Source: Azolla caroliniana (Eukaryota > Plantae > Polypodiophyta). Taken from it: a stretch of 64,000 nucleotides of DNA. The stretch covers positions 8,866,001 to 8,930,000 of the forward strand of contig JBHGNT010000017.1 of the NCBI GenBank assembly GCA_043228905.1, written 5' to 3'. Below, one piece after another: positions 8,074-54,630 of this stretch. Every line of letters starts with the position of its first letter. Position 1 is the stretch's first letter. The notes under the pieces are model-generated. The model was not told the origin of the DNA. It saw nothing but the letters and a program-made list of their open reading frames with translations, and did not search any database. The position numbers and the translations under genes are program-made.

Positions 8074-8075
8074 TT

Positions 8076-8679: not shown

Positions 8680-8684
8680 CTCCT

Positions 8685-9319
8685 TCCTTTTTCTGTGATG
8701 AACCTCCCTCTGTCCAAACGGGCGTGTGCTTGGCAAGGAGTTGTTGCCGCTTCGATGGCTTGTTTGGTGTCGTATTGGCCGTTCGGCCCCGCGTATTTGC
8801 CTTAATTGTCAGCACCGACGGTAGTAGGAGAGTGAGGCATTGAGCCACTTCTGCCCACACCTTGTTGCCATGTACCACTGATTGTATGGCCGCTCGCAAA
8901 CAATCAGTGATGATTACATGCCAATCCACCTTTACCCCTTCGTATGTGGCGATGATGAATGCGGCTTTGTTCATTGGCATTGCCAGGGGTCGGGGGTGCA
9001 CAAACCCATACTCATGGAGCACACGAGCTACTTCTGGCAACAAGGCGTTGTCGCTGCCCTATGTCTAGTACGCTTTACTAGCCAGGGAGTACTCCCCGAA
9101 GAACTTCATTAGCATCTCTGGGAAAGGATTCTCAATGGAGTAGATCCCTCCCTCTGGCAATCCGATTAAGGCGCGGATGGCCTCCTCCGTGATTACTTCT
9201 AGGTCGATCTTCTTCGTGACCTTTTCTACTTCTTCGTGCGGAGGTGCCTCTCTTATCCGTAGGAAGCCCTTCAAGACATGTTGCGTGAACCATTTCTTGG
9301 TCGTCTCGTAAAGCGCCAT
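8685..9319 (-). pseudogene. N-terminal part of the P1 extra ORF
   Basis: MALYETTKKWF...FFGEYSLASKAY and EVARVLHEYGFVHPRP...ATYEGVKVDW match the P2 eORF N-terminus. Confidence 0.85.
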
Positions 9320-9769
9320 GGGCTCCAGTATGTCCTCTGTTTCGGTGGTGGAGGAGAGTTTGATGTGCCCGTGGTAGCTTCTGATGTTTGCCTAAGCACC
9401 TGTATCCGGCTCTGTGCGCTAACTACTTTGTGTTCATGAAATGAGAGAGACTATGTTATGCGAAGGTTTTGTGTTCCCATCTAGGCCGCCTTTTCTCGAT
9501 TCCCGTGCATGCACGTCATGTGCTTTTAATAGTGGCTGTGTGACGCATGGTGTGCTTTAAATGACTTACGTCACACCGTTTCGAGGTGTCCGTTCACTTT
9601 TTAATGGCCTGCATTTTTTTGCTTGCATGGTGGCTTTACTCCACGTCTTTATTCCTCACCCCTGCATGATGGGTTTTTTTTTCTTTTTTCTTTAACGTCC
9701 TTGTATCCGGCAATACCGGATCCGTTGTATGTCCCTCCTCTTGGTTGTCGGCTATCCGCTTGCCATTCC

Positions 9770-19407: not shown

Positions 19408-19777
19408 TGTTGTATGTATGGCTGGACTAGCCGCAACACAGGTGTCTATCCGACACTTCTCCAAAGGGTGGTAGGGATAGGATGTTAATACACGCGTATG
19501 ATAATTACACTTAAGCACAGACGAAGACAAGATTAATCAGCATAAGCAAAACTATATTAATTCTTCGCGCTTTCATTACAAAACATCGGATCCTTTTATA
19601 GGCATCCGGCCAGATTACAATCGGTGCTCGGTAGGCAACCGTTAACCGAAACCGAATCGGTTCGGATCCGGATCGGTTACAACTACCGGATCCGTCCCTC
19701 CTAATAATTCTATTCCTATTTCTATATTTATCCGATCCGACCTTGCTTTCCCATTTGCCTTCTCTGACCGGTCAACA
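19408..19777 (-). repeat. P2 3' LTR
   Basis: TGTTG...CAACA, identical to 29134-29503. Confidence 0.97.
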
Positions 19778-19827: not shown

Positions 19828-22692
19828 TCAGTCTTCCTCCAACTTGTCAGGCAAACTCCGCTCCGAGGTTTCAAGTGTTGTTTTGCCTGTGCCGTCTCCG
19901 ACGTCCGATTGGATTGGCTGCCTTTTCGCATCTTGCTGCTCCGACTCTGCTTGTACCGGTGGTACCGGTGTTTCTTCTGTATCCTGTCCGGGTCTGTCCT
20001 GCTCCACCTCCGTTCCGTTCCCGGTATCGCTCTCTCCGGTTTCCACTGGTTGTGTCCTTTCCTCCCCGGATTCGGTACTTCTCTGTCTCCACTCTGCATC
20101 ATCCCCGGCATCAACCTGCTCTTGCTCCGGAAGTTCTTCCTCGGGTAATTCTTGTCGGGGTGCGTCGTTGTCGGTTGGGTTCTCTTCAGCCGATCGCTCG
20201 CCCTCACTGATGGAGATCGGCGTTGTGCGTCCCTCGGCTTCCTGTCGCACTCGGTCCTTCTCGTACCCTTCCAATTCCAGTTGGGTTTCGAGCTGCCCGT
20301 CATCCAACCTCTCTACTAACCCTCGGATTTCCTTGAGATGCTCTTCTGCTAGGGCATAGAAATCCTCCGACAATTCTTCCCGGATGTTGACGATACTTTC
20401 TTCGTCCATTTTATAGAACCCATCTCCGTTTTTCTTCCGATTTTCTGCATCAGCTCGGAGTATCTGCAGTTCAGCTGCCTGTTGTGCCCATTCCTTCCAG
20501 AGTTTCTCCGTGCTTTCATTTATGCTGGCCTGAGCTCGGGTACTCCAGCTTGACATGATGAACTTAATTCGGTCAACCCCTGCTTTAGCCTGTTCCGAAG
20601 CTGCTTGTTTTTCCTTCCTTATCCGTTTGATGATGTCGGCCATTAACTGAGCTTGAGTTTCAGAGTCGACTTTTTGCTTGTCACAGGTACTCCGCCATTT
20701 GTTGATTTCGAAAGTCGACTTCACTTTTTCCTCGTTCCAACTCTTTGTCAGCTCCCCTACTTTCTGCCGAAGTACTTCCATCTCTTTTCTTTGTTCCGAC
20801 GTCAAGGTCTTCTCCACCGATACTTCCTCCCTTGCTTTGGACAATTCCAAGCGGTTTTCCTTGAGCTGCTCTTTCAGCTTCTCTATCTGTCGGTCGTACG
20901 TTGCTGCCTGATTCTTGATGTCCGACGTGGCCTGTTTATAATCCTTACATAGTCGGTCGAATTCCTCCGTCTTCTGTTTTAGGCGTCGGTTCGCCTGATC
21001 TCGCAACCGATCATCCCGGTCCTTCTGTTGTCGGAGTTCCTCTCGCAACCGCTCGATTTCTTGCTCCATTCGTCGGCGCAGCCTATTTTTTTCCTTTTGC
21101 AGTGTCCCGTTTTCTTCTTGTAGTCGGTCATTGGTGGCTTTGCTTCGGCGAAGGCCTTCCTCCATTCGCCGTCTGTCGTCTTCTACCAACTTCCGCTGTT
21201 CTCTTTCGTTATCTCTCAATGCCTCCTGAGCCTGTAATTCTTCTTTCAAAGTTGCTATTAACTTCTCGGTCTCAGGGCCGGTTTGCAAGGCCTTCTCCGT
21301 TTCTGGTTCGGCTTGCTTTTCTGATGTCCCGACCGGCTCGGTGCCATCTTGCGCTTGTCGGCTGCCTTCTTTTGCCTGTGCTAGCTCTTCTTGCAGCCCA
21401 TGTAATTGTGCCCGGAGCATGACCATATCTTTAGTCGTCGTCCTAGTTACTTGTTCCCTTTGCTCCTCCTCTTTCTCCATCTGGTCTGCCACTCCCGACA
21501 ACTGCCCTGACACCCACCTTAGCCATTGTGCCTTTGTTCTGCCTTCGTTGGTGTCAGCAGGCGTACCTAGCTCCGACTGTTTTTCCGGCTGTTTCTCCGG
21601 CCTCTTCTCTTGTTCCGGCGCTTGTTCCTTTCTTTGTTCCTCGAACTCCGCTGCCGTCGGTTCCGGTACTGCCGTCTCTGGTGCAGACGGACCTTCATCC
21701 TGTGTCGCTTCTGTTCCGGTTACTGGAGGCGGTTCTTTTGCCCTTTGCTGAGTTCCGTCCGCTGTTGGGGTCGGTCTTGTCGCTCGTTTCTCCTTTCCTT
21801 GCCTGGGTGGTAGTATTAACCTTGGTTCGGATGAGTCTTCCTCTGTTTCAGCGTCCTCCGTCGGTGCCACTATTGGTTCCTTTACTGGTACCGGTTCCGA
21901 TTCGAGCGTTACTGGTTCCGTGTCGGTTTGCCTCTTGCTAGTCTTCTTTGCCAGCTTCTCTTTGCCTTTTTCCGCCTTTTTCTTCTTCATTGTCGGTTGC
22001 TGTTGCTGTTTCTGTGGCTGCCGTGATGGGCCTTCGTCCCGTTGCTGTCGGGATGAGTCTTCTTCCCGCGGCGCTTCTTCTTTCTGTGTCCATCCTGGGG
22101 TGTGTTTCTCTAGTATTCGTCGGCGCTTCATGGTTTGCTTCGGGGTAGTCTCCTGCCGACTTCTTTGCTTGTGCTTGATGGGGGACACCGGTGGGACCAA
22201 CACTGTTAACCATTGGGATATTCCGGCCCATGGCTTCTTCCCTTCCACCAAGTGCTTTATCGCCTCTTTCAGTCCTTCGGTGATGAAGTGGAGCCAGTCC
22301 ACCTGCAGGCCTTCGAATGTCGCGATGACGATCGCTGCTCGGTATTTGGCTATGGCTGCCGGACGAGGGTTCACGAACCCGTACTCCATCAGGGCGCGGG
22401 CCACCTCTCCGAACAGCAGGTTTTCTCCGCCCTGTGTGCGATACGCCTTGCTGCTAAGGGAATATTCGCCGAAATACTCGAAGAATATTTGGCTCGAGGG
22501 TAGCTCTATTGTTTGAAGTCCTCCCTCCGAAATCCCTGTGAGCGCTTGTACCGCTCCTTCAGTGACCTCTGCTAAGTCCACCGCTGTTGCCGCCTGCTCT
22601 GGTTCCTTGTGTGGTGGAGCGTCAGCGACCCGCAGCAGCCCTCCTAATCCGTTCTCTGTCAGCCATTGTCGCGCTCCGTCCGACAGTGCCAT
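19828..22692 (-). CDS. P2 extra ORF (about 954 aa from MALSDG; open to 22896): globular N-terminal domain, acidic linker, long coiled coil, acidic tail
   Basis: Open 1022-codon frame. Start chosen by homology to P1 MALYET. TATATAAA lies about 140 bp upstream (22828-22836). Confidence 0.85.
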   Translation of the reverse strand: MALSDGARQWLTENGLGGLLRVADAPPHKEPEQAATAVDLAEVTEGAVQALTGISEGGLQTIELPSSQIFFEYFGEYSLSSKAYRTQGGENLLFGEVARALMEYGFVNPRPAAIAKYRAAIVIATFEGLQVDWLHFITEGLKEAIKHLVEGKKPWAGISQWLTVLVPPVSPIKHKQRSRQETTPKQTMKRRRILEKHTPGWTQKEEAPREEDSSRQQRDEGPSRQPQKQQQQPTMKKKKAEKGKEKLAKKTSKRQTDTEPVTLESEPVPVKEPIVAPTEDAETEEDSSEPRLILPPRQGKEKRATRPTPTADGTQQRAKEPPPVTGTEATQDEGPSAPETAVPEPTAAEFEEQRKEQAPEQEKRPEKQPEKQSELGTPADTNEGRTKAQWLRWVSGQLSGVADQMEKEEEQREQVTRTTTKDMVMLRAQLHGLQEELAQAKEGSRQAQDGTEPVGTSEKQAEPETEKALQTGPETEKLIATLKEELQAQEALRDNEREQRKLVEDDRRRMEEGLRRSKATNDRLQEENGTLQKEKNRLRRRMEQEIERLREELRQQKDRDDRLRDQANRRLKQKTEEFDRLCKDYKQATSDIKNQAATYDRQIEKLKEQLKENRLELSKAREEVSVEKTLTSEQRKEMEVLRQKVGELTKSWNEEKVKSTFEINKWRSTCDKQKVDSETQAQLMADIIKRIRKEKQAASEQAKAGVDRIKFIMSSWSTRAQASINESTEKLWKEWAQQAAELQILRADAENRKKNGDGFYKMDEESIVNIREELSEDFYALAEEHLKEIRGLVERLDDGQLETQLELEGYEKDRVRQEAEGRTTPISISEGERSAEENPTDNDAPRQELPEEELPEQEQVDAGDDAEWRQRSTESGEERTQPVETGESDTGNGTEVEQDRPGQDTEETPVPPVQAESEQQDAKRQPIQSDVGDGTGKTTLETSERSLPDKLEED

Positions 22693-23324
22693 CGCTTCTT
22701 CTTCGTCTGCTGCTGCCTGTGGTCTGAGGTCGGGGTGTAGGTGTTCTGCGCGTCGGATCTTGCTGTCTTGAGCCTGCGTTTGCTTGTGGGAAAATTCGTA
22801 AAAAGTGAACCCTTCCCCGGTTCTTCCTTTATATAGTGGCGTTTCCCTCGAGCCGCCTTTTCCTGTTTTTCGCGCGTCCCCTGCCATAATTAGCATGTCA
22901 CTCTTTAATTTTCGACGGCTACACGTGTTCTGCCATAATTAGCATGTAACTATTTAATTCTGACGGCTGCACGTGTTCTGCCTATTTTTGGCGCCTGCGC
23001 ATGCTGTGTCATGAATAGTATGTCTGTCCTTTGCTGCCGCGTGTCATGCTTGCGTTTCTTTGCCGCGTGTGTCGAATCTCCTACGTGTCTGTCATTATGA
23101 CTCCTTAATTGACGCGCATTTTAAATCCTGTACCTCGGCCCCCCACGTTCTGTGCTTTAAATAGCTCGTGCACCCGTCTGACGGTTGTAACTACCTCCTT
23201 CATCATTACCATGATTTTTCTTGATCTTCTTGACCGTAGCACCACGTCATCATTTCTTTTTTTCTTTTTTTATTTTATTTTTTTTTTATTTTTTTTTATT
23301 TTTTATTTTTTTACATATGCCGCA

Positions 23325-29133: not shown

Positions 29134-29503
29134 TGTTGTATGTATGGCTGGACTAGCCGCAACACAGGTGTCTATCCGACACTTCTCCAAAGGGTGGTAG
29201 GGATAGGATGTTAATACACGCGTATGATAATTACACTTAAGCACAGACGAAGACAAGATTAATCAGCATAAGCAAAACTATATTAATTCTTCGCGCTTTC
29301 ATTACAAAACATCGGATCCTTTTATAGGCATCCGGCCAGATTACAATCGGTGCTCGGTAGGCAACCGTTAACCGAAACCGAATCGGTTCGGATCCGGATC
29401 GGTTACAACTACCGGATCCGTCCCTCCTAATAATTCTATTCCTATTTCTATATTTATCCGATCCGACCTTGCTTTCCCATTTGCCTTCTCTGACCGGTCA
29501 ACA
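29134..29503 (-). repeat. P2 5' LTR
   Basis: Identical to 19408-19777. Confidence 0.97.
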
Positions 29504-36418: not shown

Positions 36419-37635
36419 GATACAAGCTGTGGGTATGCAATATAAATAAGGAGGTTCAGAAAATACACAAGCAAAATGAATGCTTGAAATTTTGATTGTA
36501 TGAACTTTACCAAGAAAGCATCTAACGTCTTTACCCCTCTAGAAATATGAGATGTGATTTGAGATCCGATAACTATGGTAACACTATGGTGTTTTAAAAA
36601 CCATGGGGGAAAACATAGGTAAGATGTCTTTCTCGGATCTCTATCTTGAATAATCATGGAGGCTCCCCGAGGCTCAACCATTGTTCTAACATCAATGTAG
36701 TTTCCTAGTTAGCCTTATATTAGAATGTCAACCCAACATGTATTGATATGGTCGAGAAAGTGTATTACGTGAAAAAACAAGTGCACTCTCAAGTAATATT
36801 CTAGTCTTGTGAGTAACAAGCAAATGTTATGACCAAAACGATAAAATAAGGCATTACCCATTAGAATCAAGCAGTGATGAAAACAAGGGTCAAAAAACCC
36901 ATGTGTTACCTACTTAAAAAAAATGTCACAAATAAATGGATGGTGTGAGAGATGCACATATACATCCAAATATGGTGGTTGTAATTTGCACAATTATGAC
37001 ATAAGCCACAAATTGATACAAATGGTGGTGGTATTGTGCGCAAAGATGTAGTACTCAAATTTATGAGTAAAACAACAATAGGGGAACTCATATGATTTCA
37101 CTTGTGTTCTAAAGCTCATAATATGAGTTAAACCTAGAGGAGCTATTGGAAAATATCGTTCAAAAAACGTACGTAAATAATGTAGATGAACTTAAAATAA
37201 GGGCAAGAAAGAGCGTTAATTGTGGGTGGGTAAATGACAATTGCTAGAAAATTATACAAAAGTGAAACGAAAATTTGTATAATTAGAAATTAATTAGAAT
37301 AATAGGGTCAAAGCACACTATGGTGTACCAACTTTTGGCCAAAATTTTAGTACTAATTCGATGAGGAAAGAAAAATAATCCAATATTTGGGTTAAAAAAG
37401 TTGAGGTTGTTGGGTCACAGTCCTGGGTAATGTTGTACGGAAATCTTAACTGTAGAAGATCTCGAGTAGTCACTCAATTATGAATATAGTAAGTATGTCT
37501 CTCTCTCGATCTCTCTCTTGGCACATATGTTCATCTTGAACTGTCATTTAGTCTCTCTCTCTCCCTCTCTCTCTCTCTCTCCCTCCCTCCCTCTCTCCCT
37601 CTCTCCTTCCCCCTTCTACTCGCTGATTCCGCAGG

Positions 37636-37937
37636 TTCATACCTCCTCTCCCCCTCTCTGTCTCTCTTCTACCTTCTGTACAGGTCTCTGTAGACTCCAA
37701 GCGCGTCACTACTCGTCATTCGTACCTCCTCTCCCCCTCTCTGTCTCTCTTCCACCTTTTGCACAGGTCTCTGCAGACTCCAAGCGCGTCACTGCTCGTT
37801 GTTCGTACCTCCTCTCCCCCTCTCTGTCTCTCTTCCACCTTCTACACAGGTCTCTGCAGACTCCAAGCGCGTCACTGCTCATCGTTCGTACCTCCTCTCC
37901 TCCTCTCTGTCTCTCTTCCACCTTCTGCATAGGTCTT
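37636..37937 (+). repeat. 83-bp tandem repeat, about 3.6 copies, upstream of the transposon's second gene
   Basis: ACCTCCTCTCC recurs at 37641, 37724, 37807 and 37890. Confidence 0.9.
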
Positions 37938-39667
37938 TCAACCTCTCTAGGGCTAGTTGCGTTCTCTCTCCCTCAACTGACCTTGTTCTCCCTCACTGTT
38001 AGGTGTTCTGTGCTCACCGTGTCCTAACGACATCAACCTCTGCTCTGCTGGCTGGTTGTGTCCCCTCTGCTGGTTGTGACCTCTACTTTGCTCTACCTCC
38101 AGGTGTTCTCAAGTCATTGTGTTCCCTCTACCTAGTGTGTCTGTTTGCTTGCAACCTGTGATTCAAATGTGTCCCCTCTGCAAGGACTTCAGAAATGTAA
38201 TCGTGCTATCTGCAACCCTAACGACATCTGAAAAGGTAATCTTGCTTTAGGATTACCTTCACGTTCTGCTATATGTTAGGGTTTTGTTGTTGTTGTATGT
38301 GTTGTTCTCCCTTGATCATTTCAGACACTTGTACATGCATATGCTTGAAATTGAGAGTGTTTTACATGCATATGTCATTTATTGCATGATTTAGAATTTG
38401 GTACATGTTAACATATTGGAAGATGGTTCTATGATGGTACATTGCAATGATTTTCCATGGTTTCGCATGTATATGTTGTGTATCGGGAGTTGTGATTGAT
38501 GAAAAAAGACAGTTGTGATTGATCTATTGTTATTTACTATTGTTGTGTGTGTGAGGTGAAGAAGAGAGATAGGACTGAAATGACAAGGAAGACACCCACG
38601 AAGACGAAAATGGTCAAAGAAAATGTCAACACACCATGCAAGGAAAGAAAAAGGACCCCCATCAAAGAAAGTAAGATGACCCCCACTAGAGGGAGGTTTA
38701 AGTTGTCAACATCTCAGGGCAAGAAGATGTTCACAAACATCCTTCGAGGTAGAAAGTTAGGATAGGGATATTTCTTTCGTGCATGACCTAACACTTATGA
38801 AGATGTAGACATGTGGATGATCAAAACATGGGGCTCATCACAATCGGAGACAAGGAGAGGTTTTCACCTCACTCAATTGAAGAAGGATTATATCATTGAA
38901 CTAAAGTCACGATATGAACAAGTTTACGATACAAAACATATCCTAAACAATGAGGTAGGAATTGTTTTTGCACATGCATTTGCATATGAACTCCATGGTG
39001 GCATTGAAGTTGATTGGGAAGATTTTGCTCATCATCGATCATCACATTATAGAGGGTCCTCAAGTACCAACACTACTATGAAGTTTGAGGGTACCTCTCA
39101 CATTGAAATCCTAGCTAGGACATCTGTGTTGACTAAACTGATTGCAAAAGAAAGAGCTACACTGACAGAAAAGTATGAACAATGATTGTTGTGTTGCATA
39201 GCTTCCATGCAAACAAGAATGCAAGCGCTGCTCACCGATTTGGAAGAAGTTTCATCTAGTGAGATGGGGGCAGAGAAACAAATCACATCTATATCGAATA
39301 CATACGAATGGATAACAACAACAATCCAACATTCTGAAAGCGATGTGTTGAAAGAGGAGTTGAAGAAGGATCTGACAAATATGGGCACTCAACTAGGAAA
39401 ACAGAAGAAAGATCTGGAGACATGGAGGTCTTCTCGTTCTGAAATTGATGATAAGTTATCAGCCTTAAAAAGTCACTCTGAGAACCTGACATCTTTGATG
39501 AAGGGTCTAAAAGATAAAGGTTTAGATCCTCTATGGCCAGAAGTAGTTGAGCATCCCACTTGCAATGAAAGTACCATTACCAGAATTACTGTATCAAGGT
39601 AATGGTTTATATTTTTACAAGTTGACCTTCTATTGTATAAAATATCATCGTTGTCATGATATGGCAA

Positions 39668-39720
39668 GACTCGAACCCATGACCTTATGCTACATGGGTC
39701 GAGCTCTTACCATTAGACTA
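39668..39720 (-). promoter_or_regulatory. tRNA-like Pol III A-box/B-box module in the C2 LTR (second copy at 45641-45693)
   Basis: Minus strand reads TAGTCTAATGG ... GGTTCGAGTC, starts 43 nt apart. Confidence 0.72.
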
Positions 39721-40090
39721 TGAATTGCAATACATAGAATATTATTTTCCTTTATGTTTTATCATAGAAAATTGATGTATATTCCAGATCTCTCTCGAAC
39801 ATTCTAGAAGCTTCAGGATTATTGCTGAGAACACTATAAAAGAGGGCACTAGGCATTATGTTGAACCAAATTGGTTCATCGTCAGTCTTAAGCCTTTTAG
39901 CCACCATTGTATATTCTCTTCACATAATACATATCTCTTTCTTATCATCCCTCTCTCCCTCTCTCGATCTCTCTCTTTCTCTCCGTCTCGCTCACTTCTT
40001 CCTTCTCTCAAAGAAGTTCTACACCTCTCATAGTACTAATCCTTCGTTTAGTACTAATTCCTTCTCTGTCTTAGTACTGTTCCTGACAGT

Positions 40091-40102
40091 TTGAACCAAT
40101 TT
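40091..40102 (+). promoter_or_regulatory. Self-priming PBS (Tf1-type)
   Basis: TTGAACCAATTT is complementary to AAATTGGTTCAA in the LTR (45841-45852; 11 of 12 at 39868), about 33 nt downstream of TATAAA. No tRNA-type TGG. Confidence 0.8.
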
Positions 40103-40160
40103 TCCTAGCTTCTATCTCTCTCAGTTCCTACTAATCTCTTATTCCTCTTTTCTTTCATCC

Positions 40161-43100
40161 CATGGCCATTGTTAGCGCTGAAGAATATCAATCTATTTTC
40201 TCGGAATTTCAATGCTTGAAAGAGAAGTTCCATGCTTTGGAACAAGAAAACCAACGGTTGCTGGGGGATCTTCAGCAAATCTGCTTAGAAAAGTAGCAAA
40301 CGCAACAACAGCATGGGGAACTTGCGTTACGCGTGCAACAACTCGAAGCAACCATCATAGAGATGCAACAACAAGGGCCCGGAACACACAGGATTCATAA
40401 AGAACCAAAGATTGGCCTTCCCACGAAGTTCGATGGAACGCGATCGCAGTTTAGAGTTCCTTAACCAGGTATGATTAGTTATTCAAATGCATCCTTCCCG
40501 ATATCCCACCGATGCATCACGAGTGGGCTTAGTAGGCACTTTGTTAAGTGGCTCAGCATTGGCATGGTTCGCTCCACTATTAGAGAAGGAATCTCCGTTA
40601 CTCAACAATTTTGAAGAGTTTCTAGGTGAGTTTAAAGCATGTTTCGGAGATACTTACAGCATCAGGATCGCAATCAACAAAATTCGGCGATTACGCCAAG
40701 GTGACCGTCCAGCCTCTGCATACACTGCAGATTTTCGCCTACTCGCCGTCGATATCCCTTGGGATGATCAAGCGTTGATGGAGCAATTCCGTTATGGTTT
40801 ACGCAACGACGTCAAGGATTTACTCTTGACCTTCCCCGAAGAGCCAAAGTCCTTAATATAAGCAATCAGTCGCGCGGTGAGATGTGACAACCACCTCTTT
40901 GAGCGACATTCGGAACGACAGCTACAGATGCCGAGGGCAAGATCAGAGCCCACCTACGCCTCAGTGGTAGCAAGACCTTTTCCAAGGGAGTCATATAATG
41001 CGCCTCCAGCGAATACTCCGACTTCGATGGAGATTGACACTACACGTCGTCGAGGGCCATTATCCGAAGAAGAAAAGCAGCGACGCCGTACAAATCGACT
41101 ATGTCTTTACTGCGGTGGACCAGGACATATTGCAATAAATTGCCCCCATAGGCCAAGAAGACAGGTAAACCAAATAGTCGCTAGTTCTAATTGTACTAAA
41201 CCCGAGCCTATTTCAGTAGGGATATCTAATAGTCCTAATAGTACTAATAGCCTAGATCTAGCGAACAAATTTGATGTCCTTAGTCAGTTAGAAGAAGAGT
41301 TAAATGTCTAAGTCCCACCAAAATAGGAGCCGTTTGGTTGGACAACCCTAGATCTGTGCAGCCCATTAGTGGTTCCATTCCCTCTAAGCAAGTTAGTGAT
41401 GTGTTCATAGCCCAAGTAATAGGTAGTACTAAAAGTACCCCTCCAGTACATGTCCTAGCACTCCTAGATTCTGGAGCTAACTCTTGCTTTATGGATAAGA
41501 AATTTGCTCAAGCTCATAAGATATCCCTAAGAAAACTCTAGTGTCCAGCCTCTGTAGTAGTCATTGTTGGGAGACAGGTCCCTCCGGATGGGAAGGGAGA
41601 AGAACAGTGCCGACAAGCAAACTTGGCCGAGGCCGAAACGGTACGAGGAGCACCCGGCTACGGAGAGCCGGATGATACAGGCCCGGTATGAACCGGATGA
41701 GGAGTACCCGGCTACGGAGAGCCGAATGATACAGGCCCGGTATGAACAGGATGAGGAGTACCCGGCTACGGAGAGCCGGATGGTGCAGACCTGGTATGAA
41801 CCGGATGAGGAGTACCCGGCTACGGAGAGCCGGATGGTGCAGACCCGGTATGAACCGGAGGAAGAGACATATTCGTAAATATGTTTCTGAGAGCCAATTG
41901 TGGCTATATTTGTAAATAGCCGAAAAGTCATATTAGTATAAATATGACTTAGGGCAAAACTAATTATGTGTTTTTTGTTGTTACTTTTCTTGTTGGTGCA
42001 AGAAGAAGAGAGAGCGCAAAACTGTACAGAGAGAGAGAGAGAACGAGGCTGTTGCCTTTGTTGTAACCGTCGCCTGTGGCGAAGAGCGTGAGTCCGAGAT
42101 CGTTGCCTCCGAGAACTCACTGTTTTGTACATTCATACATAGTGACAGTTTGCAGCCTGTGGGCTGCCGTGGTTTTTCCTCCAGTTTGGGGTTTTCCACG
42201 TTAACCTCCTGTGTAGAGTGTGTGTATCTTCCTCTCCTTTGTATCGTGTTGTATTTCCCGTTTTTCTGTGTATGAAAAGAATCTCGGTTGTGGCCGAGCA
42301 TTGCACATAAGGAACCTTGAGTTCTCGTCAGTCATTGATGGACGTCCCATTGCTTCCGGAAATATCATAGAAGAGTTAGAGCCCATTAATATTGTCCTAG
42401 ATAACTTAGCATGTGTAGTATCATTTAATATTATTAGTATCCCAGAACATTCCATAGTTTTAGGATTACCGTGGTTCGAGTTACATAACCCAGACATAGA
42501 TTGGAGAACAAGAGAAATCCGGTGTCGACAAACCCAAGGGTCAACTCAGAAGATGGCAACCATTTCACTACGTCAGTTGCGTAAAGAAGGGCGCAAGGAG
42601 GAAATGTTCCTCTTTGCAATATCAGTAAACCCCTCCAGCACCACTAAAGAAGAATCCACCGTTCAACTTCCCGAGAAGTATCGTCATTACGCCGATGTGT
42701 TCGATAAAGTACAAGCCAACACACTTCCTCATCATTGACCGTACGATTGCCCCATCGATTTACAACTAGGAAAAGAGCCGCCATGGGGGCCGATCTACAA
42801 TTTGTCACCAACCGAGCTGGAAGTCCTTCGGGCCTATATAGAGGAGAATTTGGAAAATGGTTTCATTCGACATTCGAAATCTCCAGCCGGCGCGCCCATT
42901 TTCTTCGTCAAGAAAAAGGATGGATTGCTTCGTCTCGTTGTAGATTACCGTGGCTTTTCCCCTTATCTCAAGTCTTTTAGAACGGATCAATGGTGCCAAG
43001 TTCTTCACGAAGATCGACTTACGGGGAGCATATAACCTCATTCGGATCCGACCAGGAGACGAATGGAAGACCGCGTATCGCACCAGATATGGGCACTTCG

Positions 43101-45620
43101 AGTATACGGTCATGCCGTTCGGCCTCACTAATGCGCCGGCAGTCCTCCAGCACATGGCTAATGATATATTTCGAGATCTATTGGATGATTGTTTGATCAT
43201 CTATTTGGATGCTCTACTGGTTTATTCAAAGACCCAAGAAGAACATGATTCTCATGTACTATTAGTACTAAAATGACTTCGAGAACATAGTCTGTATGCA
43301 AAGCTGGAAAAATGTAGTTTCGAGTGCAACCAAGTGGAATTTCTCGGCTACATCATTTCATCAGAAGGCATCTCCATGGACTTAGCTAAGGTCAAAACGG
43401 TGGTAGAATGGCAGACTCCGCGTTCGGTGCGGGATGTGCAATGCTTCCTAGGCTTTGCCAATTTTTACCGGAAGTTCATACAAGATTACTCAAAGATCGT
43501 TCTACCTCTCACACAACTTACCAGGAAGGGAAAACCATTCATCTGGTCTGATGAAACGGACATGGCTTTCGAGAGTCTTAAAAAGGCATTTACATCGGCT
43601 CCAATTCTAGCTCATGTCGATCCGAAAAAACCATTCATTATCGAAGTTGACGCATCGGATTTTGCATTGGGGAGCATTCTGTCACAACAGGGGAATGATG
43701 AGAAGCTACATCCTATGGCTTTTCACTCACGCAAGTTTAACACCACTGAAATCAACTATGAAATTCATGATAATGAGCTATTGGCAATAGTGGATTCTTT
43801 TATGCAATGGAGGCATTTTCTGGAGGGATCCTCTCATCCAGTCACCGTGTTTAGTGACCACAAGAACCTTGCCTACTTTCAGGATGCTCGTGTGTTGAAT
43901 CGACGTCAAGCTCGGTGGGCCCACTTCCTCACGTGTTTCGACTTCAAAATTACATATCATCCGGGGAAGCACCAACGGAAGGCAAATGCATTATCACGAC
44001 GTTCGTATCTAGCACCCCGTCCCGACGAGCCAACTTTCAATAACCAAAAACAAGTCATCTTGGGACCGGCATGACTACAAGCAACACAAATCTTTGACAT
44101 GCCCATGGATTCCCGCGTTATCGATACCATACGTGAAGACTTGAAGACAGATGCGTTCGCCCAAGCTGTACTAGCACAAATTGATCCCTCTCAAGCGTCG
44201 TGTTCACAGTCGCAACCACCAGGTACAAACTATCGGCAATTCAAATACCATAATGGATTACTGTTCTTTAAAGAACTTTTGTATGTTCCTAATGGTTCTT
44301 GCCGCCTCCGAATAGTACAAAACTGTCATGACACATATACAACTGGGCATTTTGGTAGTACTAAAACATTAGATTTAGTACAACGATCATTCTGGTGGCC
44401 CTGTATGCGACAATTTGTCGAGGATTTTGTTCGGACTTATGATACATGCTGTAGAGCGAAAATGCCAAGGCATCATCCATATGGTTTATTAGAACCATTA
44501 CCAATTCCAAGCAAGCCATGGCAATCCATTGCTCTAGACTGCATCACAGATCTTCCAGTCTCTAAGGGGTTCAATGCGATTCTAATGGTGGTCAATCGAT
44601 ATACGAAGATGGCTCATTTCTTGCCATGTACTAAGGAGATCTCCAGTGAAGACACTGCCGAAATTGTCATGCGTGAAGTATGTCGGCATCATGAACTTCC
44701 CGATAGTATCATCAGCGACCGTGGACCCCAGTTCGTGTCAAAATTCTGGAAGCACCTTTTTAACATGCTCAAGCTCACTTGTAACCTCTCCTCCGGCTAC
44801 CACCCACAAACCGACGGCCAAGCCGAACGAACAAATAAAACGCTGGAGCAGTATCTGCAGTGCTTTCTCAGCTATCATCAGGATGATTGGGCAGATATTC
44901 TCCACTTCGCCGAATTTGCCTATAACAACTCTATCCACGCATCCATTAAAGTTACGCCATTTTATGCTTATACGGGATGTCACCCCCGGTGTGTACTTGA
45001 AACCCCATACGTGTCCACAAATCCGTGCGTGGAGGATCGTTTGGAGCGGTTATGCAAGATACAAGCGGATTTATCTACTCATCTCCAGCAAACTCAACAA
45101 ACACACAAGGTCTACGCGAATCGTCATCGACTTCCATCCAGTTTTAATATTGGAGATCGGGTGTGGCTGCTACGACGACACATCAAGACTACTCGCCCAT
45201 GTGAGAAGTTGGATTATCGGCGATTAGGTCCTTTCCGTATTATCGGAAAGATTAATGATGTTGCTTTTTTTCTCGATCTGCCTCCTCAACTTCGAATACA
45301 TCCGGTGTTTCATAGTTCTCTCCTCGAACCCTATCACAAGAGCACCATCCCAAGACGTCTTATACAACCTCCACCCCCGATCGAGCTTGAAGATGGGCCA
45401 GAGTATGAGGTTTCCGCCATCCTTGATTCCAAGATTGTTCGCAACAAGCTCTACTATCTAGTCGATTGGCTAGGCTATAGTCCCAGCGATCGTACTTGGG
45501 AACCGATCGAGAATGTGACCAATGCTCGTGCTCTTCTTGAAGACTTCCATCGTCAATATCCACACAAACCGGGTTCTCAATCCAAGACGACTTGTGCCAC
45601 TCGTCGTTTTAAAGGGGGAG
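40161..45620 (+). pseudogene. C2 gag and pol (PR, RT, RH, IN, group I chromodomain), disrupted
   Basis: [49 protein letters not shown], and YEVSAILDSK...YLVDWLGY...TWEP. Pol is in the -1 frame relative to the gag end at 41311. Confidence 0.93.
41565..42330 (+). mobile_element. Copia solo LTR (relative of the 2003-8679 LTR) inserted in C2 protease
   Basis: TGTTGGGAGACAGGTCCCTCCGGATGGG...TCA. TSD GTCAT at 41560-41564 and 42331-42335. Removal restores VVVIDGRP. Four 54-bp tandem units at about 41645-41860. Confidence 0.93.
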
Positions 45621-48600
45621 ATAGTGTCATGATATGGCAAGACTCGAACCCATGACCTTATGCTACATGGGTCGAGCTCTTACCATTAGACAATGAATTG
45701 CAATACATAGGATATTATTTTCATTTATGTTTTATCATAGAAAATTGATGCATATTCCATATCTCTCTTGAACATTCTAGAAGCTTCAGGATTATTGCTG
45801 AGAACATTATAAAAGAGGGCACTAGGCATTATGTTGAACCAAATTGGTTCAACGCCAGTCTTAAGCCTTTTAGCCACCATTGTATATTCTCTTCACATAA
45901 TACATATTTTTCTTATCATCACTCTCTCCCTCTCTCGATCTCTCTCTTTCTCTCCGTCTCGCTCACTTCTTCCTTCTCTCAAAGAAGTTCTACACCTCTC
46001 ATAGTACTAATCCTTCGTTTAGTACTAATTCCTTCTCTGTCTTAGTATTGTTCCTGACAATCGTTGCTAATATAGTGTATGTTGTTTCTCGTATTTGAAG
46101 GTGTGTATTTTGTGGCCTTGGATTCAAGTTTGAGGCCATGGATGCTATCATTACACCATGCTTGCACACATATCATTGTTTATGCGCCAAGTACCATTTT
46201 GAGAAAGAAAATATATGTTTACACTGTAAAAGTACAATTGGCGTTGAATGGTACTTAACTTGGGGTTTGAAAGCACATTCCTATGGTATGTAATTAAGAA
46301 CATATGTAGTTTTTATACTATGCTTTTATAATTTTAACATTTGGTTCTGGTCTTATACCCATGAGTATTGTTCCTTGGTGATCATTTTTACATGATTCAA
46401 TACTAACATTACTGATTACATTGTATTCCTTGGTGATCAATTGACAATGTGAATCTTATTTAGTATTGAGGATCTAAAATGTTTAGTTGTATAACTTGCA
46501 TGTGCACTAACATTATTCATTACATTGTATTTTCTGTGTCCACTTGGCTTAGGCTCTACATGATCGAAAAAATAGGCATGAAGGTCTAGGTTTTTTAGTA
46601 CTAACATTGTTCATTGCATGTCCAGGTGGTTGTGTAATGTGCCCTCAAGTTCCTTGTTGGAGGATTCAGTACTAACATTACTAATTACATTGTATTCCTT
46701 GGTGATCAGTTGATCCAGTACTGATTATTTAGTACTGAATGTCTTAATTGATTTGTTGTATAACTTGTATAAGTACTAACATTGTCCATTACATTGTACG
46801 TTTTGTGTCCAAGTGGTTCAATACTGTTCTCTCAAGTTCCTTGATTGATGTTTTAGTACTAACTTACTGATTACATTGTATCCTTTGGTGCTGAGTTGAT
46901 TCAGTACTGAACGTCTTAAATGTTTAGTTGTATCACTTGTATGTGTACTAACAAATAGGAGAACCGAACAAACCAAACAAATAGGCATGCAAGTCTTTTG
47001 TTTAGTACCGAACAAATATCGACAACATGTCCAGATGGTTCTATATTGTGTCCTCAAGTTCCTCTTTGTTGTTTTAGTACTAATATTACTATTACATGCA
47101 TATTCCTTGGTGATCAGTTGGAACAAGACTGATTTTGTAGTGCTGAAGGTCTTAAATGTGCACTTGATTTAGTACTGATAATATTTGTAACATTGTTGTC
47201 ATGTTAGAACTAATGTACAATTATAATATGAATGTTGTAGTATCAAGCAACACCACACCAGGGAAGGTAACTGACCAACCAGCCCCCGCGCTACTCTTGC
47301 AAATTACAAAGTCCATGGTTATTCCTTAGTGGTAACTAAGGAAATTTATGATGAAGATGAGTGTATGAGAAAGGCCATTGGAATAGTTGAAGACGTGTTG
47401 CTTCAAATAAATTCTCCTAGCTCGGCTCCCCTTGACTGTGTGAACGGTAATGCTAATTTTGTGTGAACTTTTAATAATGCATTGTTGCTATACTTCTAAT
47501 TTCTTATGTTTCTTTCAAAGAGCCTACGAAGAAGCGTAATGCTACAAGGAAATTGTATGGAAAGGGGAAGAAATGCAAAGTTCATTGTAGTGGTGGGTCA
47601 TACAAATTCTCACAAACTTTGAAAGCTGTAAAGTTAATGAGTTAGACTAAGACCACGTGCTTTTGTTGTTAGACAAAGAAGAAACAATTAAAGAAAATGG
47701 AGATACCGATTCAGAGCCACAACATGAAGAAGAATTTATCATCCTCGCAGGTACATGTTGTGAACCCTCTTATATAATAGTTATTTTGACCATATCACCC
47801 AAGTGACAATAATGGTTTTGGTCTATTAATATATAGAAAGTGATGTAAAATCTTGGCATGATTCAGAGCCCCAACTTGAGACTGGTACCATCCCAAGCAA
47901 TAATGACAAGGGTGATACCAATGCAAACCAGGTATTGTAGCACATGACAAACACAATCATCTGCAAAGACTCATCTTCAAAAGTCTTGGATGGAGATGTA
48001 ACAGTAGGTAAACGATTGTCCCTTAATCTAGTATGTTAATTGATATGGCTAGGTTCCTTAACTTTGTAAGAATGTGAATTGATATTGTTCTTGTTATTTA
48101 GGAATAGAAGAACATGGAGATTCCCAAATAGCATCAGATGATTCGGTAGTCTACGGAGCAATCTTGATTTTTCAGACTCAGATAGCACCACACATGAGGA
48201 ATGTGAAATCACCCAAGAAGAGGAGCTGAAGAACTTTGACAGTACCGTAAACATGGGGCAAGACTATATCATTAAGGAGATTGTAGCTACCACCCAAGAA
48301 GAGGAACAAGGTGGTACTACGAATTACATGTCTTACCAAAACACCGCAAGTAGCCTGCACTTGGAACAAGACTGTACAAAGAACTAGGCATCTAGCTTCA
48401 ACCACAAGGAGTTTGCAATGAAGATGGCAACCACCCAAGAAGAGGAACATGTTTGTACTACGAATACCGTGTTACTGCAGAACACCGATTCTACCCATGA
48501 AGAGCAGATTAATGCTAATACTATCGACAAGATCTTCTTGGAAGTGTGTGCGTCTCAGGCAGTTGTAGTAGAGCACAAGGTTCCCTCAAGCTTGCCCCCC

Positions 48601-49416
48601 CCCCTCCGATGATGAACTGCCACTCAGTAGTCTACTACCTCGTGGCTTTACGATGAAGAAGAAGAAGGGTGTGAAATCTGAGAAGAGTGTAACAAAAAAT
48701 AGGCGCATTACAAGATCTAGAAAAAACTAAAAACAAAGTTGTTTGTATTTAGATCGTTGTTTGTAATTGATTACCATATGAGCAAGTTTTTGATTAACTG
48801 CTTCTTGACACTGTTTTGGTTTACTTATCCTGAATTTGAACTTGATACTATTTGAGTACTCATCTTAGTGACTAATTTAGTACCAACTTGATATGAAATG
48901 TACTAACTTTGATACATCTATTTGTAAGAATGTGAATTTATTTGAGGTTTCATCTTAGGAAGAATGTCACTTGTTATGCACACATATGACATTGACGCTT
49001 GTTATGGACACATATGACACTCCTGTCTTGGATATGTCTAGGTTAGTAAACACTTAGCACAATATTAGTACTATATTTTAATGCATATGAACATGGTATG
49101 TATACTTGAACGAACCATTGTATTAGTACTAGCAATTAACATGTTCAATCTGTTCCCTCATCTAGTCAACCACACCCTCATGAGTGTACCACACACTAGA
49201 AACATGTGTGGAATGAACACAGTTTTAGTACTAACCAAAGATATTATTCACCATAAATTGTATGTAAAAGATACATACATATCTAAACAAAACACCAAGA
49301 TTAAGAGATGTGTCATTGCAAACTCATAAGAAAACCAAAGATGATATATTTCCATTCATTTGTAGGCCAGAGTTTAGAAGACATGCGAATGTTACATATG
49401 AACAGTGCTTGCCATC

Positions 49417-52400
49417 CTAAGAATTAAAGAGGGAGACCTCCCCCAATATTTGTTCGTGAACCTCTTTGGGGACCTTGTAGACAGTGTTATATCCCTTAAC
49501 CTTGTGCTTTGCTTGACTCATAGTGAACTTGATTGCGATGACAACGTCAGGATAGATTATTGCAGTGGGTGCATCTTTTAATAATGCATACGTGTTCTTG
49601 CATTGTGGTAACTTTGCATAGTAGTTTCCATACACGACACACTCACCCACGTTGAACATGTTGCCCCAACCGTCCCTCACGACTTCTTCCAATATTGTAT
49701 TTCCTTGCTTGCACACCACAATGTAGTAGTCTTCAAAATCTTCATTTTGAGGAGATTTGAGCATTGCAAAATGATCCCCAACATCCAATAATACTGCCAA
49801 GTCCTCACATTGGTTGTAGTATACAATATTTTCTACATGTTCGTCTTCTTGGATATCCACACATTGTTCAATCTCAAGCTTCTGTAGCTTCCATGGCTCC
49901 ACAATTGATAGATTGGTGCATTCATCCCAAGCTTCATTTAAACACATGGAACAAAAGCACGATAAACTACAGAATAACAATTGTGTTATGTCCCTGTGAC
50001 TAAACCCTAAAACACAATGGGTCTTGCGCGTCCCTTTCACAATTTTACAACCATACGATTAACTCCTATCCACCTCATTAGCACCAACCTCAATAAACAA
50101 TCTATTCTTACCATCATCTGACATCTTCCATGTCAGCCACTCCACAACATCATGTGCATTTTGTAACTTCGCACCTTTATTATCCAAATGTTCACTTGTA
50201 AGAGCATGATTGATCATAGCCCCCGCACCATCGTGCTCTCCTTTTCCATGTCCAGACCCGAAGTAGTTCCATTGCATCTGAATGTTTGTCAATGAGAAGT
50301 ATCTGGGTGTTTTGCATGACAGTTAGCCAACAAACAGAGTTAGTGCATTACTGGAGCGTACATCTCTTAACATGCTTAAACCAAAATTTCCACTAATGCA
50401 TGAGAGAGGACAGTACTAAGTTATAAATTAAAAGAAATGAATGAGCGAGGATAGTACTAAGCTATTGATTAGTACTAATGCATGAGAGAGGACAATCCTA
50501 AGTTATAACTTGGTCTTAATGAACAAAGTTGGATAGTACTAAGTTAATAATTAGTAGTATTGAACATAGTTGGATAGTTCTCATGCTATTAATTAGTACT
50601 AATGTTTGTACTAATGGGCCATGACAATCATAAGTTATAAACTTGTAAACCATATTCGTACTGGTAGGAAACTCAAGCAATAGATGATTTACTATGAAGT
50701 ATTACCGAAATAGACTTCCAGTTATAAGTACCAATCATATGGATTATTTCTTTACCTTGCAATGAAGTAGAAGGACGGAGCCGCCTTAAATTGCGAGGCA
50801 GCACCATCAAACCAGACCCAATGGCGATAAAAGTTAACACCCAAGGACAATAAATCTGTGTGGTGAAGCTTAAAACAATGTTGAACAAATAGCGTATCAT
50901 GCTTTTTATCATCTGAAATATAGAATATTGATTTCTTATGTAACTCACCATCTTTTCTCTAGTAGCGAATATGTACAAGTATTGTACATTGGTCATTGTA
51001 CCAATGCATTGACTGAACCTCATTTTGAACTTTAAAGGTATAGTTCACTGCAAAGTCAATAACAGATACCATAACATCCAGTGGTAAGTTATTTATACAT
51101 TCCTTGAACTGTGAATTTTGCCAATAATTCCTAAAGTTATGTGGAATGAACTCCCCGAGTTGCTTCTTAAACCCTTGAGACAAGGGTAGCAGCACATGTC
51201 TCCTTATATACTTCCTCGATACGCTTACTAACGAGACCCTTACCTATATTTTCTGTCATATACTCTAAATATTTCCATTTCACAATATGACAATTATCCA
51301 CGTCAACCTTCTATCTACAAAATAACGGTTGTGGGCAAACCTTACATGTTCTGACAAGACATGTACGATTATGCCACTCAGATGATGGTTGTTTTTCACA
51401 AACAAAAGACCTCCATAACTCACAAAATGTTGCATAAGTCATATTCCGCGCATTACATCTATTACCACTCCCATTTGGTCTACATACCTCACAAGTGCAA
51501 ACACACCCATTTCCGTGTATACCCTTAGAATCAATACGCATACTATTCACGCCAAGCCTTAACATGTCCATTTTAATGTGGTACACACAACAACATGTGT
51601 TCCTCTCCTTTACCTTTCTAACAAAAAATGGTTTCAAACCTCGGAACTTGCGAAATCCAAGATTGATGCTAGGATGTTGGTCTTTGAAGTTCATGAACAA
51701 TTCAGCCGACATCACTCAATAAATAGGTAACATTAATAGAAGCATTTAGTAAACAACAAAATATTTAAAACCAAACCCTTAAGGGCAGCTCCGAGGGAGT
51801 TGAAAGACAACGATAGCCTTCATCCAACAATGGTCGTCCTCTCCCTTTCTTGAGTTCGTGGGCATCCACATAAGATGGAACTATCGCGTCCCTTCAGGGA
51901 TTTGTACATAATTGTCTCATTTGTAAAATTTTATAACTAATGGAAGGAGTTTCTTTTTTGGGAAATATGTATATATATATATATAACCAAATAGATAAAA
52001 AATTGAATTACCTTAGTCATCTCCAAGAAGTGTCTTGGGTGAATCTGGTACCTACCCCGACTTATACTTTGTCTATATACATCTTTTTTATTCGGTGAGA
52101 CACGTGTGTTTTTTGCCCAAAAGGAACCCACTTCCTCAATAATCTCATGAGACAATGCATCACATCGTCGCCGTCTACGGCCTAAACCCGAACCACTTAA
52201 ATTGATTTGATTGTATGTTTGTCCGATGCTTCCTCAAGTTCCTTCTTTGGATACCAAGTGTTAAGGCAACTTTAGTATCCCTATATTTTTTTTTTGTTGT
52301 GCCATTTACAACCATGTGAAGGGCCGCTCTCTTTTCACCAAGCTTATCTATGCTCTCTACCCCTTTCACTAAGTGTAGGGATAACTTCATACACTACAAT

Positions 52401-52643
52401 TTCCTCTGAAACACATTGGTCCCTAAACTTAATATTCTGCATGTCTTCATTCAAAAGTTGATGGTGCAACACTCTAGAGATAATATCCCTACGATCCTCC
52501 AAGCCAAATATCTCAATTACTTCTAGTAAATAACGGACTATGTGAAGAACCACCCGTCTCTTGCTCCTCTCAAACATTGATTTGCTAAGGGACACCTCGT
52601 TCTCCTCATCAATGACCATTGTCACTCTCATATATTCCAACAC
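49417..52643 (-). pseudogene. Sola2-like DDD/E transposase, spliced and decayed
   Basis: FWAKNTRVSP, FRGLKPFFV...RNTCCCVYH, VIDFAVNY, WFDGAASQFK (about 50790-50820), YFGSGHGKGEHDGAG, LSCFCSMC. Confidence 0.82.
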
Positions 52644-53596
52644 CTAATTTCTTGTTATTTCAGCACCTAATTAGTCAGAATAAGTGCTTAATACATCGTA
52701 AAATAAACATAGGTAATACCCCATAGCATAAACATCAACCGGAAATCAGATAAACATTTGAGAGTTTGTCACAGTCATATATTCCTTTTCCAAACCAATT
52801 AACTTTTAAGAATAATTGCATCAATTAACTTGTTGTTTGAAATACATAAGTTTTATGACTCACATGATGATGAGATGCATGCATACTATTTACATCATGA
52901 AGTCTTCTTAACTAGATTTTAAGACTACGATAAGTATAACCTAACTCATGTTATGCATGAGTTCATAACACAAACACTATTCATTTACTTTTTCCATCAA
53001 AAACGCCCCCATCAATGAAATTCAAATCCACTGATTCTTCAAACCATTTATCAAGCCTTATTAATATATTGGTATTCATGTTAAACGTTTCAACCCATAT
53101 AAAACCTTAACATGGATCAATTTAAGACTCCCATGAAGATTGCCGGAACATACAAACACAATTTATGTTTAACATTTTCCATGATGAATAACTTATGTCA
53201 ATTCAAACTGTATATTTTGCTGCTCCTGGTTGGTCATTTTACAAGCCTAGCCTGGATGTTGCTAATCCATTATATCATTAAAACATCCACAACGATCAGT
53301 AAAATATGCAGGTTCTAACCACTTGGCTAACAAGGCTGGTGTAAATATTTCAGATTCATGTTATCATGCCATGTTTACATTATTTTACGATTCCTATTCA
53401 ACATTAATCTTCATACGTGCCAATTTAAGATTGCTAGAGTATACATTCAATTAACAGTACTGTATAGAAATAACCACTTTTTACAGAAATAGGTCCAGAC
53501 ATACAGAGTGAAAGAGAAGATGGAGAAGACATTCCCATGGAAGGAGAAGATGGGGAAGACGAGTGACGCAAAGAACAACAAAACGACATTTCGAGT

Positions 53597-53690
53597 GCGC
53601 TGTGAAGACCTGAGTTGGAAGGCGGAAGACCAGAGCGCGCTGTGAAGACCTGAGTTGGAAGGCGGAAGACCAGAGCGCGCTGTGAAGACC
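53597..53690. repeat. 40-bp tandem repeat upstream of the transposase
   Basis: GCGCTGTGAAGACC recurs at 53597, 53637 and 53677. Confidence 0.85.
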
Positions 53691-54630
53691 TACGTTGTCT
53701 CAATTGGAAGGCGGAAGAGGAGACGCCTGGGAGAAGCGCCAAAAGGATTTAATGTGGCGTCCTAAATTAAACGTGAGGGAGAAATAGCCCCCAAAACAGT
53801 CCTGAATACGCAGCAACTGTCCCCCCACCCATTCCCTAACTTTAATGCAACGTACAACACTCCCTAAAAAGATTTTAATTATTTTCGAGTTTTTTTAAAT
53901 CACTCAGTACTAACAGTACTCGTGTTTCTTTTGGCCAAAAACAGTACTTTTTTGGTACACCGTAGCGTGCTTCAACCCAATAATCAGTTAGGTGTATAAA
54001 TCATTAAGCATGCCTTAACGTATGAAACCCTAAGGTAGTCAACATGCACCTCCTCAAGACCACCACATCTCCCAAGAATCGGCCAATTGACGACTCAATA
54101 AAGAGTAACGTGGCATAGGTAAGCGACATATACCTTGTCATGGCCACAACATCCCATAGACTCGGCCAAGTGATGGCACAACAGAGGGAAGAGTGGCCTA
54201 CTCAACATCGTATACAAAAGGGCCATGAGGTGAGCGTGTGCGATTAGGGTAAACACGCTCGACCCAATGCACAACAATAATTAATATCGTAATAGAAGGC
54301 TCAAAAGAAGGGAGAGTGGGATATACATCGCAATATGCAAAAGGGCCATGAGTTGAGCGTGTGTGATTAGTGCAAACACGCTCGACCTGATGCATAAGTA
54401 GATTAACATCGTATGATGGTAGAAAGAAGAAAGAAAAGAAAAGAAAACGTAATACCACTTCCATATGACCAAGAAGAAAGCATCGTAGAAAAGAAAAGAG
54501 AGATCGAGAAAGAAGAATACCGGGTTAAGAATGTTGGTTTGATCCTGTGAAGAGCACGACGAGCCTTGTTAGATCCCCATCACTCATAGGCAAAAAACAT
54601 CAAAAAAAAAATAAAAATTTATTAGTAAAT

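Follow-up and report, generated by a model that had tools for sequence, protein, structure and literature searches.

A Sola2-like DNA transposon of Azolla caroliniana with a conserved coiled-coil and RING-H2 accessory gene and arrays of a YAGTACTAA motif

A Sola2-like DNA transposon occupies positions 37305-53978 of the 64,000-nucleotide stretch of Azolla caroliniana DNA analysed here (assembly GCA_043228905.1, contig JBHGNT010000017.1, positions 8,866,001 to 8,930,000 of the forward strand; hereafter the window), and besides its transposase it carries a multi-exon accessory gene that encodes a coiled coil and a RING-H2 finger. We hold with high confidence that the accessory gene is a stable and selected part of the transposon family. 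An earlier interpretation of the window (the sequence-only reading) had placed such a gene inside terminal inverted repeats (TIRs), convergent with the transposase, and had proposed a two-gene Sola system. Both proposals held: the TIRs match at 22/26 positions with AATA on both sides, the transposase gene lies on the minus strand at ~52631-49417 and converges with the accessory gene, and the latter is multi-copy and linked to the same TIR and transposase. The range 38580..48730 first given for the element covers the gene, but the element itself is larger; it includes a nested retroelement and measures 10,261 bp once this is subtracted.

Copies of the accessory gene and selection between them

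The sequence-only reading had named two outcomes that would speak for a captured or idle gene, namely occurrence in this copy only and neutral evolution, and we observed neither. From metagenome contigs we obtained 53 matches to the search pattern and 15 loci, the latter from nine assemblies with neighbouring accession numbers. A full stop-free exon 1 was present in 8 of the 15 loci, and the RING exon followed 86-91 nt downstream in all 11 loci that reach it. Loci L003, L005 and L006 begin with this same TIR, each next to a different flank, which makes four flanks with that of the window copy; L002, 95.5% identical to the window copy over 4.9 kb, reaches the transposase gene and enters it from the convergent 3' end. 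In runs X1, X5, X11, X13 and X15 (four organisms), contigs covered 30/30 bins per stretch with many contigs per variant site, and the first two stops of the window copy were missing from almost all contig depth in the five runs; summed contig depth was not taken as copy number. The TIR pattern was not found in viral contigs.

A phmmer search of 1.84 billion representatives returned 32 matches, among which there was no host-gene parent; of the ten looked up, five were named, all of them hypothetical proteins of Adiantum nelumboides, and these five resemble scattered broken copies within one genome. In a profile search, exon-1 frames were still intact at identities as low as 32-39% (P0217, P0218). 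The largest contig was 12,129 bp for both P0094 (transposase) and P0220 (exon 1), no more than a hint of linkage. Deletion derivatives of the family exist as well: P0027 and P0038 are internally deleted copies in which the basic N-terminus is fused almost directly to the RING intron.

The ratio of non-synonymous to synonymous substitution (dN/dS) was calculated by the Nei-Gojobori method on exon 1 and the RING, for pairs with a dS of at least 0.1. Between subfamilies it was 0.25-0.41, and with a kappa of 4 it was 0.36-0.47 (p <=1.1e-4, significant in 4/4 pairs); the whole span of 0.25-0.47 indicates purifying selection and does not support neutral evolution. By region, dN/dS was lowest in the RING (0.13-0.31), the helical domain (0.12-0.35) and the coil (0.23-0.33), and higher in the basic tail (0.37-0.73) and the linker before the RING (0.3-1.6). 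The window copy against L002 gave 0.53-0.75, which was not significant, and the private synonymous, non-synonymous and stop changes numbered 8/17/2 in the window copy and 3/0/0 in L002.

Some observations on the copies count against us. Only one of the 15 loci (L002) reaches the transposase, and L010, from a diverged subfamily, had no TIR within ~1.3 kb upstream. Moreover, the 15 loci may not be independent, given their neighbouring accessions, and those of high coverage may be collapsed copies.

The element, its two genes and the decay of the window copy

The left TIR (37305-37330, plus strand) starts with GGGT and the right TIR lies at 53953-53978 on the minus strand; gapped similarity of the left TIR to the right end extends to ~45 nt, and the pair is the sole inverted match of at least 18/26 to the left end within the window. 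The same four letters, AATA, form the target-site duplication (TSD) at 37301-37304 and 53979-53982. The element termini read GGG...CCC, and the rule for Sola2 TIRs is 5'-GRG...CYC-3'.

The transposase has a last exon at 49417-50302 with the GHGKGEHDG motif (third catalytic Asp at 50232) and a stop at 50061, a core exon at 50755-51712 with CCCxxH, DFAxN (51057), SDD..HD and DGAASQFK (50808), and probable 5' exons at 51753-52631 with uncertain boundaries taken from a three-frame reading, all on the minus strand. A frameshift near 51180 and two stops, one at 51313 and one at 50961, interrupt the core exon; the transposase has an Asp at each of the three catalytic positions. Relatives of the transposase made up 41 of 84 candidates (47-89% identity), and in a Pfam scan of five of them no family cut-off was passed. 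DFAVN (DFAEN in intact relatives), SDDKKHD, DGAASQFK and GHGKGEHDG stand in the same order as in the accessible part of the Sola2 alignment in Additional file 10 of PMC3627910, a comparison of motifs made by eye. The available text of PMC3627910 and PMC10741241 gives a Sola2 TSD of 4 bp, AT-rich in the former. By the features that could be tested, which are the DDD motif series, the 4-bp TSD, the GGG...CCC termini and repeated insertion at different sites, we assign the element to Sola2.

On the plus strand, exon 1 of the accessory gene (38580-39598) has three stops in the window copy and is an intact frame of 337-340 aa in L002-L009. Exon 2 (46101-46285) encodes the RING; its coordinates and C3H2C3 spacing are exactly those first reported, and the in-frame join to exon 1 across an intron of about 89 bp was confirmed as well, since removal of the retroelement leaves 89 nt of intron 1 (39599-39651 and 46065-46100 within 39599-46100) and a junction reading ...ITVSR-CVFC. 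Five further exons are predicted: exon 3 at 47241-47446, with a 13-nt deletion in the window copy and splice sites common to L002, L006 and L009; exon 4 at 47521-47592, basic, its donor being the best of three in-frame candidates; exon 5 at 47673-47750, acidic; exon 6 at 47837-48007, whose acceptor is AC in L006 and was not found in L009; and exon 7 at 48102-48730, an acidic low-complexity tail followed by a short basic end.

In L002 the seven exons give an open frame of 751 codons, and most splice sites of this model recur in L006 and L009. The Adiantum nelumboides gene model MCO5594379.1 has its coil-RING junction at the same place, with a RING that is 49% identical. The splicing is a prediction, based on the conservation of splice sites and on a single annotated gene model from a fern; run X15, which is probably DNA, contained no splice joints, and none of 4596 candidates was a protein longer than 595 aa containing exon 1. 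A run of ten C (window 48595-48604 region; L002:4590-4600) puts the last ~42 basic residues out of frame in both copies. L009 has a frame-keeping spacer at this position, two contigs stop at that spot, and the basic C-terminal stretch weakly matches the Adiantum C-terminus.

That the window copy has stops had also been seen correctly. The accessory gene has five (38763, 38784, 39183, in exon 6 at 47938, and in exon 7 at 48385), in addition to those of the transposase, together with two deletions, one of 13 nt near 47294 and one of a single nucleotide near 48144, the latter shifting the frame of exon 7. Among 4818 sites compared with L002, 121 differ in the window copy, chiefly by C-to-T at CHG and CG, and its mutated sites by context are 36/234 at CHG, 15/146 at CG and 18/1457 at CHH. 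This bias is the mark of host methylation. The window element is a dead, methylated and decaying copy of a many-copy family whose accessory gene was selected.

The nested retroelement is a Ty3/gypsy chromovirus (39652-46059, plus strand) with matches to gag, reverse transcriptase (RT), RNaseH, integrase and chromodomain, long terminal repeats (LTRs) of 437 bp that are 2.8% apart, and a 5-bp TSD, ATCGT. It is inserted in intron 1 of the accessory gene. Eleven of the fetched loci span this intron, and none of them has the insertion; one contig from the five runs reads through the empty site. In the protease region lies an inserted piece (41561-42300) that resembles the LTRs of another retroelement of the window (2002-3389, 8075-8679) at 75-79% identity. 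The start of the chromovirus LTR (39652-39750) has an extremely high summed contig depth, and contains what we take to be a tRNA B-box-like word, present in other LTRs of the window too.

Elsewhere in the window, identical 370-bp LTRs at 19408-19777 and 29134-29503 point to a very recent retroelement insertion, and 19831-22938 and 8591-9391 (minus strand) hold long extra open reading frames (ORFs) of other retroelements, for which Pfam gives a coil match only. Within the element, an 83-bp tandem repeat of 3.6 copies (37635-37936, plus strand) lies upstream of the accessory gene and a 40-bp tandem repeat of 2.5 copies (53593-53691) upstream of the transposase; the most enriched 6-mer of the element, AGCGCG (5 observed against 0.1 expected), lies within these repeats, which are possibly promoter elements common to both genes. 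In L005, positions 750-2090 on the minus strand hold a putative host gene for a secreted protein, presumably root-cap-like, head-to-head with the element, which lies ~450 bp upstream of it.

The accessory protein and the YAGTACTAA arrays

The accessory protein consists, in order, of a basic tail, a helical domain, a coiled coil, the RING and an acidic tail. Residues 1-52 are basic and contain three to four [ST]P-x-[KR] words in 7/7 homologues checked (four in the window copy); such words are known both as targets of cyclin-dependent kinases and as DNA-binding words of the histone H1 type. A five-helix domain is predicted at residues ~58-157 (the best of five models has a predicted local distance difference test score, pLDDT, of 85.5 and a predicted template modelling score, pTM, of 0.81; the others have a pLDDT of 55-66), the coiled coil (aa 184-312) is two long predicted helices, and in the L002 model the last 277 residues are acidic. 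The best Z for the helical domain model was 2.9 among 48,161 chains, and Foldseek found no match to it in PDB or BFVD; the absence of a fold match does not prove that the modelled domain is a new fold. Sequence-profile searches of PDB gave coil-type or non-significant matches only, the exon-1 model yielded nothing beyond coiled-coil noise in fold searches, and Atlas had no usable match for the Adiantum domain, P0026 giving RING leads below 0.9 only. Two retroelement ORFs of the window resemble the IEVDW motif, but not significantly (probability 0.8% and 0.5%).

The RING has the spacing C-x2-C-x15-C-x-H-x2-H-x2-C-x10-C-x2-C, and all eight zinc ligands are kept in the window copy and four aligned loci. 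The window RING matches Pfam zf-RING_2 with an E value of 4.6e-4, below the family cut-off. Among four RING-bearing queries, only L013 scored above a cut-off, that of zf-C3HC4. The nearest solved relatives of the RING, all weak, are RNF4 (E 1.2e-4) and then, weaker still, PCGF5, PCGF6, ARK2C and BRE1. It shares the pattern CLHT[FY]..C..HF..N.C with PCGF5 and PCGF6, and in BRE1 a coil precedes the RING as it does here. However, the RINGs of PCGF5/6, RNF4 and BRE1 are C3HC4 and that of the Azolla element is C3H2C3, and matches with E values of 1e-4 to 0.05 imply no orthology.

Outside its coding parts the element is rich in a short motif. AGTACT occurs 23 times in the 10.3 kb of the element against 3.3 expected, and not once in the ~5.0 kb of putative exons; the sites lie in the subterminal regions, in intron 2, in the gap between the genes, in a transposase intron and upstream of the transposase. 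One subterminal AGTACT(AA) site (37349-37354) is also present in L003, L005 and L006. Intron 2 holds an array of nine sites in degenerate repeat units (46597-47176), four sites lie between the 3' ends of both genes (48855-49232), five belong to a 41-bp tandem repeat in the transposase intron (50392-50604), and three are subterminal at the right end (53906-53948). Y precedes the core in 21/23 sites, giving the consensus YAGTACTAA, in which the AA is inflated, the sites having been oriented towards A. With AA flanks there are 17 sites in the element, against at most 3 in any of 100 shuffles, and none in the other 47.3 kb. The intron-2 region of L002, L006, L007, L009, L013 and L015 has 6-14 sites each; in the diverged L013 and L015 there are six and eight (0/200 shuffles reach this), often 50-51 bp apart, and the flanks of these two loci align in pieces of at most 62 nt. 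The nested chromovirus has nine perfect YAGTACTAA sites as well, three in the 5' LTR, four internal (shuffle mean 0.2) and two in the 3' LTR, including two inside RT and integrase coding sequence, and the chromovirus and the Sola element may share a trans-acting factor.

Possible function and comparison with known systems

We tentatively favour the possibility that the accessory protein is an anti-silencing factor which binds the non-coding YAGTACTAA arrays and whose RING acts on chromatin. The basic tail and the helical domain would read the motif, the coiled coil would oligomerise the protein on the near-palindromic repeated sites, and the RING would ubiquitinate a chromatin factor or pair with a host RING such as a subunit of Polycomb repressive complex 1 (PRC1); as a result, family members would be expressed and mobile, and host silencing would be countered. 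According to the accessible text of PMC5735166, VANC21 binds YAGTATTAY in intronic, intergenic and terminal non-coding tandem repeats and removes methylation, and VANC6 acts also on an unrelated transposable element that carries its motif, AT9TSD1. The layout of the Azolla element has the same parts as the VANC system, and a motif-binding anti-silencing function was therefore preferred.

Several points weigh against this function. The link between protein and motif is one of co-occurrence alone, and many AGTACT sites lie within duplicated repeat units, so that their counts overstate independence. The helical domain has a net charge near zero rather than a basic one, and no likeness was found between it and DUF1985, PMD or DNA-binding folds. 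RINGs usually contact the ubiquitin-conjugating enzyme (E2) through a helix Trp, the Pro of CPxC and a linchpin residue, although exceptions exist; here the Pro is missing in 8/8 aligned members, the usual Trp position is occupied by His-Phe as in PCGF5/6, and a Lys follows the last Cys. Furthermore, the motif lies 45-75 bp from both element ends, which would suit the transposase or a transposition cofactor, and it occurs in the unrelated nested retroelement, which would suit a host factor.

The position of these outermost sites, at most 75 bp from both ends, speaks for a role as transposition cofactor, which we think unlikely but worth serious weight: like MURB, TnpA of CACTA elements or the Myb-like protein of Harbinger, the accessory protein would bind the motifs or the transposase to build a transpososome, with the RING as a dimerisation or scaffold module. 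The convergent two-gene layout with strict co-inheritance, the departure of the RING from the E2-binding consensus, and the MURA-MURB binding documented in the available part of PMC12973397 all fit such a role. However, 19/23 sites lie well away from either end, where they occupy introns, the gap between the genes and the region upstream of the transposase; a nested retroelement needs no transpososome sites; and in the accessible sections of PMC3627910, Sola2 elements either have the transposase as their sole gene or vary in their 3' cargo.

It is likewise doubtful that the protein is a diffusible E3 ligase which tunes the level of the transposase or degrades a host silencing factor, while a host transcription factor or the transposase reads the motif. 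The RING is the best-conserved part by dN/dS and its nearest solved relatives, weak matches as they are, are E3 RINGs; the enrichment of the same motif in an unrelated retroelement also agrees with this, and its GTAC core is, we assume, the SBP-box core. On the other hand, AA-flanked sites are absent from the other retroelements in 47 kb of the window, selection or conservation extends to the helical domain and the basic tail, and the Trp and Pro of the E2 contact are missing in all eight aligned RINGs.

More specific than the anti-silencing function that we favour, and improbable on present evidence, is a scenario in which a fern Sola2 evolved its factor independently of VANDAL, a new helical domain reads a 9-mer near that of VANC21, a PCGF-like RING attacks silencing, and an unrelated chromovirus gathered the motif to hitch-hike. 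That the gene is a captured host fragment, one-off or carried as a neutral passenger, is hardly credible: the named homologues carry the annotation of ordinary hypothetical proteins and the gene is known from DNA alone, but purifying selection acts across subfamilies, frames stay intact down to the identities of P0217 and P0218, the intron position is conserved, the phmmer matches include no host parent, and the five named homologues look like broken copies scattered in one genome.

Sequence-specific anti-silencing is proven for few plant elements only. If the function that we favour is true, this strategy arose more than once, in a second superfamily and a distant plant lineage, and is linked to ubiquitin-based chromatin control. 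With a candidate site, the intact L002 gene model and another element that has the same motif, direct tests of the idea are possible. Even as a transposition cofactor, the gene would represent a type of Sola accessory gene that our searches of the literature did not turn up; one domain of its protein is modelled with confidence and matches nothing in the libraries searched. Indeed, the literature searched, which did not extend to the founding Sola paper, Repbase entries, subscription journals or bioRxiv supplements, contained no RING-bearing Sola accessory gene.

In the accessible portions of PMC12973397 and PMC10741241, Sola is rare among active plant TIR elements (for classification context, see the available parts of PMC4455052, PMC5751038, bioRxiv 10.1101/2021.09.26.461848 and PMC8756742). 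With Sola2 as far as the available descriptions go, the Azolla element has in common a DDD transposase with CxCxxH, DF[AS]EN, [IV]SD.L.HD, SDG...Q[FY]K and HGK..[CH]DG, short TIRs and an AT-rich 4-bp TSD; unlike them, it is ~10.3 kb long with introns, has a second convergent gene of seven exons, and reads NTCCC for NVCVC and FGSGHGK for FATSHGK. Sola2-Fanzor1 of Dictyostelium and Polysphondylium, in the accessible text of PMC3627910, also combines a Sola2 transposase with a second gene, short TIRs and a 4-bp AT-rich TSD, but its cargo is the TnpB-like Fanzor1 and varies between families, whereas the Azolla element has a conserved coil-RING protein and motif arrays. Sola1-1_Ec32 of Ectocarpus, as the available part of PMC12477816 describes it, is also a large Sola whose accessory gene lies on the opposite strand and has been proposed to act on the element that carries it; it is, however, a Sola1 of 21.5 kb with ParB-like and DNA methyltransferase cargo, and no RING is described there.

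PMD-C and DUF1985 are structurally similar according to the accessible part of bioRxiv 10.1101/2024.09.27.615353. The comparison with VANC that the sequence-only reading had drawn gains support from the non-coding motif array, which that reading did not cite and which is like that of VANC21, but does not extend to descent: homology to VANC was not detected, DUF1985 and PMD gave no match among the matches listed (25/72 families, 30 members), and the fold searches list no VANC, the VANC content of their libraries being uncertain. The Azolla element would, by inference, work like the VANDAL/VANC system, and is not a member of the VANC family on present evidence; to our knowledge, VANC proteins have no RING. 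VANDAL elements, which are Mutator-like elements (MULEs) of Arabidopsis, belong to another superfamily, and binding and demethylation were demonstrated for VANC (PMC5735166, in the part available), whereas for the Azolla element they are conjectural. Even so, the two systems have in common an accessory gene, a 9-mer in non-coding tandem repeats and the presence of that motif in an unrelated transposable element, and the YAGTATTAY of VANC21 is close to the YAGTACTAA of the Azolla element.

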